64,000 nt of DNA. Source: an uncultured bacterium (GTDB lineage Bacteria > Fidelibacterota > Marinisomatia > Marinisomatales > UBA1611). The notes beneath the pieces were generated by a model. The model was not told the origin of the DNA. It did no database searches and was given only the letters and a program-made list of their open reading frames with translations. Numbering within the stretch: position 1 is the first letter of the stretch; every line of letters starts with the position of its first letter. The DNA lies in contig CBFIBM010000009.1 in NCBI GenBank assembly GCA_965660855.1, positions 15,588 to 79,587 of the forward strand, written 5' to 3'. Of the stretch, positions 31,283-35,127 are shown one piece after another. Both the position numbers and the translations under genes were made by a program.

Positions 31283-31531
31283 TTATTTTTGTCCATATTT
31301 TCTATTGAATTTTTCAATTCTTCCAGCCGTATCAACAAGATTTTGTTTCCCAGTAAAAAATGGGTGAGATTTATTTGAAATTTCTATTGTGCACAAAGGA
31401 TAATCATTCCCATCATCCCACTTTATAGTCTCTTTGGTCTCGACTGTTGAACGGGTTAGAAAAGTATGATCACAAGATGTATCTTTAAACACAACTAACC
31501 TATAATTCTTTGGATGTCCTTCTTTTTTCAT
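31283..31531 (-). CDS. rpmE: 50S ribosomal protein L31, type B (zinc-free)
   Basis: [35 protein letters not shown]; no CxxC pairs. Confidence 0.97.
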
Positions 31532-31534
31532 ATT

Positions 31535-32746
31535 TTATTCTTCCTTATTCTTCAATTTTTTTAAAGCAGTACTTACTCTTTTGATTCCATCTCTAATTAT
31601 CTTTGTGCTTGTTGCATATGAAAATCTTATATGCCCTTGAGCGCCAAAGCCATCACCTGGTACTGTAACAACTTTTGCAGAGCCCAGAATATACTCAGAA
31701 ATATCAAAAGTATCTTTCATTAACTTTCCCTCAAATAACATGCCCAAGTAATAACTAAAATCCGGGAAAACATAAAATGCACCACCGGGTAAGCGGCAAG
31801 TGACACCAGGGATATCATTTAATAAATCAACTATTAAGTCTCGTCTTTCTTTAAATGCCTCTTTCATGTCTTCAACACAACTTTGATCTCCAATTAAGGC
31901 TTCTATAGCTGCTTTTTGGCCTATAGAGTTAGCACATGAGGTCGCTTGCCCTTGAATTTTAGACATTGCTTTTATAATATCTGTTGGCCCTGCAGCGTAA
32001 CCTATCCTCCAACCTGTCATCGCATAGGTTTTAGATAAACTAATGCAGGTTACAACCTCTGCCAGTATATTATTTTCCCGGTTAAGTTTTTCAGTACTTA
32101 CAAACTGACCATCATAAACTAGTCTTTCATAACATTCATCAGAAATAATAGTCCAGTTATGCTTTTTTGCCAATCTTAATAATTTTATTATAGCTTCTTT
32201 TTCCCAAATTCCGCCTGTTGGGTTTGAAGGTGAATTAAGTATTACGCCTTTTATCTCAGGAGTGATCTTTTTTTCTAAATCTATAAAATCTGGTTCAAAG
32301 TTTTTTTCTGCTAATGTATCTACAAGAATTGGCTCTGCATCAGCTAAACGTACAAATTCAGGGAAAGAAACCCAATAAGGTCGAAATACTATGACTTTGT
32401 CTCCTTCTTCAAATAAAGCTTGGCATGCGTTATATAAACTTTGTTTTTCACCATTTGAAACTAAAATATCAGAGGGGTTATATGATATGCCGTTTTCTCT
32501 TTTCAGTTTTTCACAGATAGCTTCACGTAATTCAATCATTCCTGGACCGGCTGTATACTTTGTAAAACCATCATCCATTGCTTTTTTACCAGCCTCTATA
32601 ATATTAGAAGGAGTATTAAAATCTGGCTCACCTACTGAAAAGTTTATAACATCCATCCCCTTTGACTTCATGTCAGCTGCAATTGTAGCCATTTGTAACG
32701 TAAATGATGGCTTTACTTTATGTACTCTGTTAGAAAGTTTTGTCAT
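31535..32746 (-). CDS. PLP-dependent class I/II aminotransferase (aspartate aminotransferase-like)
   Basis: GEPDFNTP, NSPSNPTG, SDECY, SLSKTYAMTGWRIGY. Confidence 0.95.
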   Translation of the reverse strand: MTKLSNRVHKVKPSFTLQMATIAADMKSKGMDVINFSVGEPDFNTPSNIIEAGKKAMDDGFTKYTAGPGMIELREAICEKLKRENGISYNPSDILVSNGEKQSLYNACQALFEEGDKVIVFRPYWVSFPEFVRLADAEPILVDTLAEKNFEPDFIDLEKKITPEIKGVILNSPSNPTGGIWEKEAIIKLLRLAKKHNWTIISDECYERLVYDGQFVSTEKLNRENNILAEVVTCISLSKTYAMTGWRIGYAAGPTDIIKAMSKIQGQATSCANSIGQKAAIEALIGDQSCVEDMKEAFKERRDLIVDLLNDIPGVTCRLPGGAFYVFPDFSYYLGMLFEGKLMKDTFDISEYILGSAKVVTVPGDGFGAQGHIRFSYATSTKIIRDGIKRVSTALKKLKNKEE

Positions 32747-33777
32747 TAAAATTTATGCTGCTTTTTATGATGTTTTTCTGTGTTAAACTTGTAATCGTCT
32801 GACTCATCAATAACATCTGGTTTTAAATTTATGTTCACGGGTTCGTCATTAAAGTTTTTCTTAGGCTTTTTAGATTTCTTACTTTTATTTTTTTTAAAGC
32901 TTTTATCTTTATCAGAAATTTTTTGATTCTTGTTAAATTGATTTTTCCTTTTTGGTTTACGCTTTTTTCTTCTCTTTCTCTTTGGCTTAGGAACATCTAA
33001 AGCAGATATGACTTCTAGATCATTTTGGCTGTCAATTTCAAGCGGTTCCTGATTCATAGATATATTTTTTAATTCATCATCTCCAAAATTAAACTCATTT
33101 TTATTAAAAGCACCAAATATAGTTCCAAAACCTCTAGTTATTCCATTGCCAACACCAATATAGCTTGGTAAGAAAAAATTTGTTTCAAAGTCACCCATAA
33201 ATGCACCCCATTTATTATCATCGACAGACTTTGGGAAAAGACTTTCTAACGAGACTCTTGTATAAATACTATCTTTTAACTTAATTCCTAATTCATTAGC
33301 TAAAAAAATAATGTTTTGCCCAATTAGCTTATTAAGAAAAGATGGTTTTTCCTGGTTAGTTAAAAATCTATATTTCCCACTTGTCATATGATTGAGAGCA
33401 ACCCATGGTGTAATAAAACGGTACTTTAACAGCTTCTCAGATGGGATAAGCTGCTCTTTAGACTCTTGTTTATCAAATGATTCAACTTCAAAAGTAATGT
33501 TCCCGAAGTCAAAATTATCAAATTTTTCGGAGAGCTGAATAACTGGATCAACACCTTCTTTTATACCAATTATGTAAATTTGTTCATTAAGAATTTTTAC
33601 TTGAACTCTAGGATATAAAAATTTATCTCTTAGAGAACCATTAAGCATAGGAATTATACTCTCATCAGGAAATTGTCGCATAAAAACACCTTTTACTTGA
33701 TAAGGTGTTTTTCGAACAGGTTTATCTGTAACTACCCGCACTACTACTGATTTAATATCAGGAAAACTATCACTCAT
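32746..33777 (-). CDS. cas6: Orphan Cas6b-like RAMP protein with acidic and Lys/Arg-rich C-terminal tail
   Basis: Cas6b-type motifs YPRVQVK, YRFITPWVALN, GQNII, F-x-TNFFLPSYIG and G-loop GVGNGITRGFG (GhGxxxxxGhG with Arg) at aa 208-218; 123-aa tail. Confidence 0.82.
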   Translation of the reverse strand: MSDSFPDIKSVVVRVVTDKPVRKTPYQVKGVFMRQFPDESIIPMLNGSLRDKFLYPRVQVKILNEQIYIIGIKEGVDPVIQLSEKFDNFDFGNITFEVESFDKQESKEQLIPSEKLLKYRFITPWVALNHMTSGKYRFLTNQEKPSFLNKLIGQNIIFLANELGIKLKDSIYTRVSLESLFPKSVDDNKWGAFMGDFETNFFLPSYIGVGNGITRGFGTIFGAFNKNEFNFGDDELKNISMNQEPLEIDSQNDLEVISALDVPKPKRKRRKKRKPKRKNQFNKNQKISDKDKSFKKNKSKKSKKPKKNFNDEPVNINLKPDVIDESDDYKFNTEKHHKKQHKF

Positions 33778-33798
33778 TTAGAATTAATAATTAAAAAT

Positions 33799-35049
33799 TT
33801 ATTGACTCATAGTATCAAGGAACTCCGCATTTGACTTCGTTCTTTTCATTCTATCTTGCATGAAATCCATAGCTTCTTCTACTTTCATATCATTTAATAA
33901 CTTTCGCAAAACCCACATTCTACCTAACGTTTTACGGTCATGCAATAACTCTTCTTTTCTAGTACCAGAGCGAATAATATCAAAAGCAGGGTAGGTCCTT
34001 CTGTCACTTAAACGTCTATCAAGCACAAGCTCCATATTTCCCGTACCCTTGAATTCCTCAAAGATTACCTCATCTGCTCTACTACCAGTATCTATCAGAG
34101 CTGTTGAGATAATAGTCAAGCTACCTGCTTCTTCTGTATTTCTTGCTGCTCCAAAAAATTGTTTTGGCTTCTTTAAGGCATTAAAATCAACACCCCCAGA
34201 TAAAATTTTTCCACTATGAGGTGTTACTGCATTGTGAGCTCTAGCTAAGCGGGTTATGCTATCTAATAAAATAACAACATCATCACCATACTCAACCATT
34301 CGTTTTGCTTTTTGTAAAACCATATCAGCTACTGAAACATGTCTTTCAGGTGGCTCATCAAAAGTAGAACTTATAACTTCTGCATCTACATTCCTTTTCA
34401 TATCTGTTACTTCTTCTGGTCTTTCATCAATTAGAAGTACAATTCTTTTTGTTTCAGGATGATTTTTACTAATTGCATTTGCAAGGGTTTGCAATAGTAT
34501 GGTTTTACCAGTTTTAGGTTGTGCAACTATTAAACCCCTTTGGCCTTTACCTACCGGAGACATAAGATCCATTATTCTCATAGATAAATCTTTTGGGTCC
34601 GTTTCTAAATTGAACTTTTCTTCTGGATAAAGAGGTGTAAAATTTCCAAACAATATAATTTTTTTTAGATCTTCAAGTGGCTTATCATTAACTGTAATTA
34701 CTTTAAGCAACGCATAAAATCTCTCTTTTGATTTAGGTGGTCTAATTTGGCCAGATATTAGATGGCCCGTTTTTAAAGAGAACCTTTTAATCTGAGAAGG
34801 ACTAACATATATATCATCAGGACCAGGTAAGTAATTAAAATCAGGTGATCTTAGAAATCCATATCCATCTTGCATAACCTCTAACACACCTCTTGCTGAA
34901 AACGCACCCTGCTTTTTAGCATTTGCTTCTAAAATTTTGACTGTTAACTCTTGTTTATTAAGCCCTGCTACGCCACCTTCAATTTTCATTTTTTGAGCTA
35001 CTTCAGTTAACTCTCTAATACCAAGTGATTGTAATTCATTCAAATCCAT
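33799..35049 (-). CDS. rho: Transcription termination factor Rho
   Basis: [46 protein letters not shown]. Confidence 0.99.
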
Positions 35050-35127
35050 GTGATTTATACCTATATAATAAATTTGGAAATTTTAAAAATAAGCCCCGTG
35101 GAATGTCTGGGATTAGTAGAAATTACA

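Follow-up and report, generated by a model that had tools for sequence, protein, structure and literature searches.

A conserved, charge-segregated tail on a rho-linked Cas6b-like protein of an uncultured Fidelibacterota bacterium

Introduction

Cas6 proteins are CRISPR RNA cutters. In the window, i.e. the whole stretch of 64,000 nt analysed here (assembly GCA_965660855.1, contig CBFIBM010000009.1, from an uncultured bacterium of the Fidelibacterota), a Cas6-like protein is encoded next to rho and carries, after the end of its fold, a long and highly charged C-terminal extension. The locus raises the question of whether this extension is a genuine part of the protein and, if so, what it could do beside Rho. 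A first-pass annotation, made from the sequence alone, had described a charge-blocked and likely disordered tail, and had suggested that it may serve in trans, by non-specific RNA binding or condensate formation, a Rho devoid of the charged insertion common in related phyla, or else contact the ribosome. A literature search, at the level of listings, retrieved no paper tying Cas6 to SAR406/Fidelibacterota or to rho; the new elements are the tail's anatomy and an observation on one streamlined family, named f12 in the following.

The Cas6b-like protein and its neighbourhood

The coordinates of the gene, of the tail modules and of the adjacent genes are collected in Table 1.

Table 1. Features of the Cas6b-like locus, with positions in the window.
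Feature	Position	Strand	Description
Cas6b-like gene, whole	32746..33777	(-)	343-aa ORF, without catalytic histidines
G-loop GNGITRGFGTI, end of the Cas6b fold	33118..33150	(-)	residues 210-220; aligned with the C-terminal G-loop of MmCas6b
Module 1, linker and first acidic block	33046..33117	(-)	residues 221-244; net negative in 75/81, mean conservation 0.55, pLDDT 47-51
Module 2, predicted ordered segment (about 245-262) ending in DVPKPKR (261-267)	32977..33045	(-)	
Module 3, polybasic length-variable spacer	32857..32976	(-)	residues 268-307; pLDDT < 40
Module 4, second acidic patch	32797..32856	(-)	residues 308-327; net negative in 80/81
Module 5, conserved C-terminal motif DDYKFNTEKHHKKQHKF	32749..32796	(-)	residues 328-343; mean conservation 0.85
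rho, 416 aa, no insertion	33799..35049	(-)	21 nt upstream of the Cas6b-like gene; Rho_N 5-48, Rho_RNA_bind 53-125, ATP-synt_ab 157-361 (Pfam)
Class I/II aminotransferase gene	31535..32746	(-)	ATG shares one base with the Cas6b-like stop codon (TAATG)

Both domains of Cas6b were recognised by Pfam in the first 220 residues, Cas6b_N at 8-100 (41.8 bits against a cut-off of 25) and Cas6b_C at 113-220 (87.8 bits, cut-off 39.4), and no NCBIfam family matched the protein. The top match in the PDB was the Cas6b 4z7k, with an E-value of 5e-23 for the single sequence and of 4.6e-51 for the profile, and Foldseek also ranked 4z7k_A first (E 5.5e-12, TM 0.70 on the target). The four glycines G210, G212, G216 and G218 of the G-loop are invariant among the aligned orthologues. 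The catalytic residues of MmCas6b are H38 and H40, aided by Y47, as given in PMC3479195, through which the residue numbering was also cross-checked at K29/K30; in our alignment the positions of H38, H40 and Y47 are occupied by P43, L45 and F53, respectively, and all of the 81 aligned orthologues share P43 and L45.

A tandem array was looked for in the window and none was found; likewise, no array-like repeats were detected in the assembly (2.09 Mb, 84% complete), and Cas1 was not found in the window's own genome. Cas1 was recorded in none of the 25 genomes of the window's family and in 5 of 41 relatives, 40 of which encode the Cas6b-like gene. The context of the gene is without CRISPR, and the protein is a CRISPR-independent member of the Cas6b fold, devoid of the catalytic histidine pair and encoded together with rho. 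The latter lies directly upstream in 50 of the 52 Cas6b-like loci examined, and the neighbours of the gene include, besides rho and the aminotransferase, the genes for L31, RF1 and PrmC. A scan of the window against Rfam at the gathering threshold gave no match.

Contigs from RNA libraries of two studies, 95-99% identical to the window, span the whole tail and both gene junctions with no indels, thus bridging also the junction with the aminotransferase gene; such contigs are no proof of transcription, and one of the RNA runs covers only 13 of 30 bins. In addition, a contig identical over 31500-34428 was present in a DNA run that is possibly the source of the window's DNA.

Anatomy of the tail

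The tail measures 123 aa: it comprises residues 221-343, for which the coding positions are exactly 32749..33117, followed by the stop codon at 32746-32748, and every sequence string named in the first-pass annotation was found in it. The statement that Cas6 proteins end soon after the G-loop was also borne out, both by the 218-aa MmCas6b and by 66 short-tailed homologues, which stop 3-44 aa past this element. On the other side, tails of 70-163 aa were found on 152 distinct full-length orthologues, all but three of which (149) carry the loose terminal motif [FY]N...[HYF]H: the tail and its terminus are conserved, and the recurrence of the same end argues against stop-codon loss or an assembly artefact as their origin.

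The charge blocks proved as marked as described. The charge segregation of the tail (a kappa-like measure) was 0.46, compared to 0.18 ± 0.04 in shuffled sequences, with none of 2000 shuffles reaching the observed value, and z exceeded 3 in 142 of the 152 tails. The composition is rich in Lys (24%) and includes 6% Pro, with repeats of the KPKRK/KKPKK type. In the 2.09-Mb, 84%-complete assembly 1600 ORFs reach 150 aa or more, and of all their 45-aa windows only one is more basic than that of the tail's basic block.

In an alignment of 81 sequences, five modules were distinguished, in the order acidic, acidic-docked, basic, acidic and basic-terminal, which is kept in 75-81 of them; the sign of the charge is conserved for modules 1 to 5 in 75, 78, 81, 80 and 77 sequences, respectively. 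Module 2 closes with a DVPKPKR-like pattern in 137 of the 152 tails, with P263, P265 and R267 conserved at 90% or more. The spacer of module 3 has a net charge of +9 to +24 in all 81 sequences, but a length ranging from 19 to 71 aa and a conservation of 0.38, and is flanked by acidic blocks in 75-80 of them. Module 4 reads FSEEFDIE in most orthologues and is degenerate in the window, an EEFDIE-like pattern being found in 125 of the 152 tails. The terminal 16 residues, instead, reach a conservation of 0.85, equal to that of the folded domain: N332, H337, Q340 and H341 are invariant in the 81 sequences, the N and H of the motif are still invariant across the whole order (39 sequences), and the consensus [FY]N...[HYF]H.[KR].H is nearly invariant. 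What is conserved is the charge sign and the order of the five modules, and not the sequence and length of the spacer, a make-up that fits a nucleic-acid-binding polyampholyte.

Order and disorder, and a possible gate on the Cas6b domain

The proposal of a disordered tail stood for about two thirds of its length. AlphaFold2 assigned a pLDDT below 40 to residues 281-320, a low-confidence helix to 334-340 and a pLDDT of about 52-54 to the terminal motif, and outside the segment before DVPKPKR confidence was low in both models built. This segment departed from the proposal: residues 251-260 had a pLDDT of 82, with a strand at 255-257, and the equivalent stretch reached 84 in a second, independent model, that of a 290-aa short-tailed orthologue. 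Roughly 20 residues before DVPKPKR are predicted to be ordered in both.

An ordered acidic segment could suggest that the tail is an intramolecular regulator, in which the acidic blocks and this segment, placed on the RNA-binding face by the G-loop, would gate the Cas6b domain, while the basic block and the terminal motif would mainly release or set the gate. The tail does begin directly after the G-loop, the two models agree on the order of the segment, acidic blocks lie on both sides of the basic one in 75-80 of 81 sequences, and an acid-base autoinhibition within the Bacteroides Rho region is described in PMC13269538. However, the terminal motif is not confidently docked in the models, and this reading leaves unexplained that the tail-less orthologues would need no gate; we consider it unlikely.

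Selection on the tail and its origin

At the invariant residues of the terminal motif the synonymous codons vary freely (AAT 15 and AAC 14, CAT 18 and CAC 11, in 29 loci), and the sequence context 3' of the tail differs between loci; both observations speak for selection on the tail at the level of the protein. Synonymous sites were saturated in all of the 10 pairs compared (pS 0.61-1.0), and pN was therefore set against pS in place of dN/dS, giving for the tail 0.15-0.33 and 0.69-1.0, respectively. Within the tail, a strain variant about 97% identical to the window showed 11 codons with non-synonymous and 6 with synonymous changes, the amino-acid changes falling mostly in the polybasic spacer, so that the sequence of the spacer is near neutral.

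These last data, together with the low conservation (0.38) and the variable length (19-71 aa) of the spacer, are what one would cite for a neutral low-complexity drift, i.e. a Lys-rich read-through in an AT-rich genome, an assembly error or a functionless product of a lost stop codon. Against it, 149 of 152 distinct sequences keep an open frame as far as the shared terminal motif, despite an indel-prone low complexity, the last 16 residues are conserved like the fold with synonymous sites varying at the invariant positions, and the tail is reproduced in the identical DNA contig, from a run that may be the source one, and with no indels in the RNA-library contigs. Drift seems to us scarcely credible, being contradicted by the conservation data, and the comparisons of sequences indicate that the tail is a real, selected and lineage-specific appendage, neither junk nor artefact.

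In the phylogenetic tree, the 27 tailed rows form a single clade (support 99/96) and need one change, and along the tree the tail lengthens from 70-88 to 96-112 and then to 123-162 aa. The tail thus arose once, in the window's order, and lengthened by growth of the basic spacer. The gene itself was lost in at least 10 families, as well as in the streamlined family f12 (0 of 13 genomes), and is in this sense dispensable. Moreover, as tail-less orthologues, a form of the gene that sister lineages retain, are as tightly linked to rho as the tailed ones (21 loci), the tail is not needed for the core role of the protein. In an abundant ocean phylum, which has a cultured member in Fidelibacter multiformis (PMC11652737), a Cas6 has thus lost its catalytic residues, become single-copy and near-universal, and been wired to rho; one order later added to it a selected, modular charged tail.

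Is the tail a Rho region in trans?

As had been noted, the 416-aa Rho of the window has no insertion, since Rho_N is directly followed by Rho_RNA_bind. It was also expected that the presence of the tail would anticorrelate with insertions in Rho, and this failed as a general rule: Rho measures 410-436 aa and has no insertion in 49 of 50 loci, with a tail of 3 or of 162 aa alike (in the remaining locus the assembly has a broken Rho), and insertions are equally absent in 20 of 20 rho loci without the Cas6b-like gene and in the tail-less lineages, which excludes a general anticorrelation in this set.

Family f12 alone fits the expectation. It is the only family inside the tailed order without the Cas6b-like gene, its synteny reads Mur-ligase gene, rho, aminotransferase, and in 10 of 10 of its Rho proteins we found, by inspection of sequences and alignments, an insertion of 13-37 aa, rich in K/E/A/P and variable in length, between Rho_N and Rho_RNA_bind, which is the canonical site. 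In the tree the f12 Rho sits on a long branch within the tailed order. This pattern is one evolutionary event, not a correlation; nevertheless, its reciprocal character, with the loss of the gene and the gain of an insertion in Rho, makes of the vague notion that Rho is helped by disordered regions a swap between cis and trans that can be tested.

The corresponding reading is that the tail supplies in trans the disordered region of Rho, for RNA tethering or condensation, with the C-terminal motif docking on Rho. Besides the adjacency to rho in 50 of 52 loci and the f12 insertion, which falls exactly between the two domains of a Rho whose long branch lies inside the tailed order, two literature data are consistent with it: about 69% of the Rho proteins of the FCB group have an insertion, according to PMC11347177, and the tail shares the design of the Bacteroides Rho region, as described in PMC13269538. 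Several data oppose it. Family f12 represents a single event in a streamlined, fast-evolving lineage, and its insertion is about one tenth of that of Bacteroides (+309 aa, from a figure legend of PMC11347177); no insertion accompanies the absence of the gene or of the tail elsewhere; only 2 Rho columns (positions 112 and 356) are specific to the tailed clade, so that there is no sign of Rho adapting to the tail; and no Rho fusion was found in a search among longer proteins. A complex prediction of Rho (45-row alignment) with residues 221-343 of the tail, run with no controls, gave scores of 0.01 and 0.00, the mark being 0.32, and speaks on neither side of the question of binding. On balance, we judge this reading unlikely.

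In its boldest form, which we hold to be no less doubtful, the tailed Cas6b relative of one SAR406 order would be a detachable disordered module of an insertion-free Rho, using the FN...HH.K.H peptide as a docking handle, and the streamlined lineage would have lost the gene and rebuilt a small K/E-rich insertion in Rho itself, at the canonical site. If true, this would be the first instance of a CRISPR protein put to new use as a termination accessory acting in trans, and likewise the first in which a disordered region of Rho is shown to be exchangeable between a cis and a trans form.

The search among longer proteins mentioned above returned one match only, a 693-aa protein joining a Cas6b-like N-terminus (the first 162 aa) to helicase domains of the RecD2/PIF1 type, which we took as a probable chimera because it occurs only once, on a contig of 5 kb.

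Proposed function

The interpretation that we tentatively prefer, at a little less than an even chance, is that the tail is a polyampholyte appendage that tethers RNA and docks a partner by its end. The polybasic spacer would offer a sequence-independent affinity for RNA, and so lend the Cas6b domain, itself RNA-binding, more avidity and a longer reach, and the flanking acidic blocks could fold back onto it, tuning or gating the binding. Such a fold-back would follow the logic described in PMC13269538 for the charged motifs of the disordered region of Bacteroides Rho. The invariant C-terminal peptide may dock on a conserved partner, for which Rho, RNA polymerase or the ribosome are candidates, and the protein would work alongside Rho on RNA that is nascent or not translated, the tail being a putative add-on, acquired once by one order and then enlarged.

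A signature of a partner shared with other proteins did not emerge, since the end motif was seen on no other protein of the genome and on no protein other than the Cas6b-like ones in a word-based search: of the genome's 2994 stop-to-stop ORFs with 80 aa or more, this one alone has the terminal and DVPKPKR motifs, and the word-based search with residues 300-343 retrieved 7 proteins from 14 candidates, all Cas6b-like and with no other protein class. The tail alone, searched in the ESM Atlas, gave among the matches listed three clusters of hypothetical proteins at 0.82-0.84, below 0.9; two of these are recorded as Fidelibacterota, and one has Cas6b_C on 14% of its members.

The same basic block could bind DNA rather than RNA. 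With its KPKRK/KKPKK elements, 24% Lys and 6% Pro, the tail may resemble the Lys/Pro-rich tails of the histone-H1 type, and like these it could bind DNA or the nucleoid and so anchor the protein on the AT-rich chromosome. The attached domain, however, is an RNA-binding fold, with no DNA-binding domain, and the neighbouring genes (rho, L31, RF1, PrmC) are related to RNA and translation, which makes DNA binding very improbable. The tail gives experimental handles in the invariant 16-residue peptide, the basic block and the acidic segment predicted to be ordered.

Comparison with known systems

The closest known relative is Cas6b, the crRNA endoribonuclease of type I-B from Methanococcus maripaludis (PDB 4Z7K/4Z7L, PF17955 and PF17262), which has the same two-domain RAMP fold and G-loop as residues 1-220 of the tailed protein. 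The latter differs from it in the replacement of the catalytic H38, H40 and Y47 by P43, L45 and F53, and in its gene, which adjoins rho, is unaccompanied by a CRISPR array or by Cas1, and occurs as a single copy nearly throughout its order. Furthermore, the 218-aa MmCas6b stops at the G-loop, 2 residues past the alignment, whereas the tailed protein runs 123 aa further.

For the tail, a similar design is offered by the Rho insertion of Bacteroides thetaiotaomicron, composed of a KE-rich subdomain, a conserved domain and a prion-like subdomain, in which, according to PMC13269538, the composition and short charged motifs are conserved. As in the tail, the composition is kept while length and sequence vary, and both regions, which are linked to Rho, possess a few short, highly conserved and charge-dense motifs of alternating sign. 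The Bacteroides region is further characterised by ppGpp binding and by an RNA-dependent condensation which raises Rho activity. The two have no sequence relationship, and the tail belongs to a protein of its own, where the Bacteroides region is part of Rho and lies between the N-terminal bundle and the RNA-binding domain; the tail is also shorter (70-163 aa compared to about 300 aa), and the protein of the window has no Q/N-rich prion-like part.

A further parallel comes from the genome itself, where the third most basic 45-aa window falls in the tail at the C-terminus of a DEAD-box RNA helicase. The basic C-terminal extensions of these helicases are non-specific RNA tethers and, like the tail described here, consist of a Lys/Arg-rich low-complexity sequence on an RNA-binding core. 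The tail differs from them in its flanking acidic blocks and in the invariant aromatic-His motif at its end, and the core that bears it is no ATPase.

The Tail Follows a Cas6b-like Fold

The open reading frame downstream of rho encodes a protein that exceeds the Pfam cut-offs for both Cas6b domains, and the tail coordinates proposed for it in the first-pass annotation agreed exactly with this frame and its stop codon. By sequence, the sole solved relative was Cas6b of Methanococcus maripaludis (MmCas6b, 4z7k/4z7l; E 5e-23 with the single sequence and 5e-51 with the profile), a protein of 218 aa terminating right after the G-loop, and Foldseek with the AlphaFold model of the window protein ranked 4z7k first. 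Thus, the premise that Cas6 proteins end near the G-loop holds: the fold stops at about residue 222, and a tail of 123 residues follows.

Coordinates of the features in the window; segment charges are from an alignment of 81 sequences, in the numbering of the window protein
Feature	Position (strand)	Residues	Remarks
rho	33799..35049 (-)		416 aa
Cas6b-like gene	32746..33777 (-)		343 aa, carries the tail
Aminotransferase	31535..32746 (-)
Cas6b_N		8-100	Pfam
Cas6b_C		113-220	Pfam
G-loop		210-220	GNGITRGFGTI
Tail, coding part	32749..33117 (-)	221-343
Stop codon	32746-32748 (-)
Tail segment		221-244	net negative in 75/81
Tail segment		245-267	net negative in 78/81
Basic spacer		268-307	net positive in 81/81, +9 to +24, length 19-71 aa
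Tail segment		308-327	net negative in 80/81
Tail segment		328-343	net positive in 77/81
Mur-ligase-family gene/rho gap	35050-35127 (-)		stem and T-rich run
131-aa ORF	32391-32786 (+)		antisense to aminotransferase and tail end

In a pairwise alignment, with the MmCas6b numbering verified against K29/K30, residues H38, H40 and Y47 of MmCas6b corresponded to P43, L45 and F53 of the window protein, and P43 and L45 were unchanged throughout 81 orthologues. According to excerpts of the published work, the MmCas6b double mutant in H38 and H40 lost most activity (PMC3479195). By source names and the Atlas, the organism falls within Marinimicrobia/SAR406, the present Fidelibacterota. The Cas6b-like gene was present as a single copy in 40 of 41 related genomes and Cas1 in 5 of the same 41; Cas1 was found neither in 25 genomes of the window's family nor in the window's own assembly (84% complete), and no array-like repeats were found in the window or in that assembly.

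The tail had been described as likely disordered, which stood for residues 281-320 (pLDDT < 40 in the AlphaFold2 model from 81 sequences) and not for residues 251-260, which reached pLDDT 82 with a short strand at 255-257; a weak helix was predicted at 334-340. A second model, for a 290-aa orthologue of an early-branching family, was confident overall (mean pLDDT 84, pTM 0.81) and reached pLDDT 84 in the equivalent block preceding D-I-P-R-S-R-R, with the terminal helix at about 52. Since both models were confident at this block, about 20 tail residues probably form an ordered segment, which most likely packs against the Cas6b domain.

Linkage to rho

The genes lie on a single strand in the order Mur-ligase-family gene, rho, Cas6b-like gene, aminotransferase, L31, RF1 and PrmC. 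A spacer of 21 nt separates rho from the Cas6b-like gene, which in turn overlaps the aminotransferase by one base (TAATG). Among 52 Cas6b-like loci sampled across the phylum, rho was immediately upstream in 50, and the two exceptions were the weakest matches (26-28% identity).

Some additional features were observed. In 10 aligned loci, the gap upstream of rho contains a conserved G+C-rich stem of 5 bp and, after it, a T-rich run; 4 of the 5 pairs show compensatory changes. The element resembles an intrinsic terminator belonging to the upstream gene, or else a piece of the rho leader. The 131-aa frame on the plus strand was taken to be spurious because it lies wholly inside the coding sequence of the other strand. 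At locus L004, from a genome of the window's genus (G002, 55% complete), rho was divided between two matches that overlap (query residues 1-195 and 165-416), the result of either a frameshift or an error in the assembly.

Modules and Selection in the Tail

From 322 collected proteins, removal of fragments and duplicates left 218 distinct full-length sequences with a recognisable G-loop. Tails of 70-163 aa (median 137) were present in 152 of them, whilst the other 66 had fewer than 60 aa. The end motif [FY]N...[HYF]H near the C-terminus was found in 149 of the 152 tails (strict form in 131), a DVPKPKR-like motif in 137 and an EEFDIE-like motif in 125; the three tails lacking the end motif were one near-match and two apparently miscalled genes. 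The charge-blocking noticed in the first reading was borne out, with a segregation in the window protein of 0.46 versus 0.18 ± 0.04 in shuffled tails, reached by none of 2000 shuffles, and z > 3 in 142/152 tails. Mean conservation over the 81 sequences was 0.85 in the last 16 residues, equal to that of the folded domain, and 0.38 in the basic spacer. At two loci of the genus g19, in the same order (L024 and L025), a second internal P-N-[FY]-N, the start of the end motif, occurred about 25 residues before the terminal copy, which suggests that the motif can duplicate.

In 29 loci, the invariant Asn of the end motif was encoded by AAT (15) or AAC (14) and the invariant His by CAT (18) or CAC (11), and the sequence after the stop codon varied from lineage to lineage; therefore, what is conserved is the protein and not some signal to the gene downstream. 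In ten pairs, with synonymous sites saturated in all, the tail pN (0.15-0.33) was far under pS (0.69-1.0) and about 1.3 to 5 times the domain pN; we give little weight to neutral drift of the tail. Moreover, the RNA libraries of two studies yielded contigs, whose presence there is not proof of transcription, that spanned the entire tail and its junctions with both neighbouring genes and differed only by substitutions; one such variant had 17 changed tail codons, 11 of them non-synonymous and none in DVPKPKR or the end motif. Inside the order, the scenario in which orthologues stop at the G-loop and the tail is an artefact of a lost stop codon or of the assembly was excluded.

Origin of the Tail and Rho Insertions

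A tree of the Cas6b domain only (49 rows; three rows, two of them tailed, were omitted because the G-loop pattern missed them) placed the 27 tailed proteins in one clade (support 99/96), with a single change of the tailed label. All tailed proteins came from the window's order, and the sister group, from other orders of the class, had 3-39 aa past the G-loop and kept the linkage to rho. Tails were 70-88 aa long in early-branching families, then 96-112 aa, and reached 123-162 aa in the window's family, most of the gain being in the basic spacer; the minimal tail already combined the acidic block with the D[VI]P..[KR]R motif and the end motif.

The first-pass annotation had also suggested that tails could anticorrelate with charged insertions in Rho. 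As a general rule this failed. Regardless of tail length, 49 of 50 loci had a Rho of 410-436 aa whose alignment contained no more than 5 gaps, the 50th being broken in the assembly; at 20 rho loci from families without a detected gene, a family profile search found no Cas6b-like frame and no Rho had an insertion (alignment covering 405-416 residues). Only two columns of Rho set the tailed clade apart. The stronger proposal of a tail that acts for Rho in trans appears quite improbable to us.

One case fitted the idea, namely f12, a family of the same order with streamlined genomes of about 1 Mb (92-99% complete). None of its 13 genomes matched the Cas6b-like gene and 12 had Rho; in five loci, the order Mur-ligase gene, rho, aminotransferase indicates that the gene is cleanly missing. 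In all 10 f12 Rho proteins (loci L056-L060 and L081-L085), 74-98 residues preceded the GYGFLR motif, versus 61 in the window Rho, and the extra 13-37 residues, K/E/A/P/N-rich, length-variable and partly repetitive, lay precisely where Rho_N meets the RNA-binding domain, a boundary described in excerpts of PMC11347177 as the insertion site in other phyla. Elsewhere in the phylum, none of the Rho proteins examined had such an insertion. A quick Rho tree placed f12 as a long branch within the tailed order, a placement that is unsafe for such branches. The pattern is a single event in a fast-evolving lineage, a lead and not a correlation.

Putative Role of the Tail and Comparison with Known Systems

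At the level of sequence, these comparisons show a modular and selected tail on a putatively nuclease-dead, RNA-binding fold co-encoded with rho. The basic spacer could extend the reach of the protein and add non-specific affinity for RNA, the acidic blocks could tune or gate this affinity, and the invariant end motif may dock onto a conserved partner; we would give this reading slightly less than an even chance. A mainly autoinhibitory role of the tail seems unlikely, and DNA binding by the tail deserves little credence.

The end motif was on no other protein of the window's genome and, in a word-based search, on no non-Cas6b protein. The only longer form was P0274 (693 aa, one metagenome contig), whose first 162 Cas6b-like residues are joined to RecD2/PIF1-type helicase domains; as it stands alone, a chimera made by the assembly or the gene call is more probable than a genuine fusion. 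The proteome's other strongly basic stretches lie in two proteins encoded on contig C1 of genome G000, at 138204-139736 (L055) and 194061-195659 (L054): a DEAD-box RNA helicase, in its C-terminal tail, and a TPR-repeat protein, in an N-terminal region (K+R 0.67 over 45 aa).

A similar tuning or gating logic is described, in excerpts of PMC13269538, for the charged motifs of the disordered region of Bacteroides Rho, and the likeness of the acidic blocks to it is one that we infer. In the literature searched, no paper linking Cas6 to Fidelibacterota or to rho was found. The Cas6b fold family, and charged tails with short conserved motifs as a kind of feature, are already known; what is new is their combination in a His-less Cas6b that is linked to rho and bears a five-module tail peculiar to one order.
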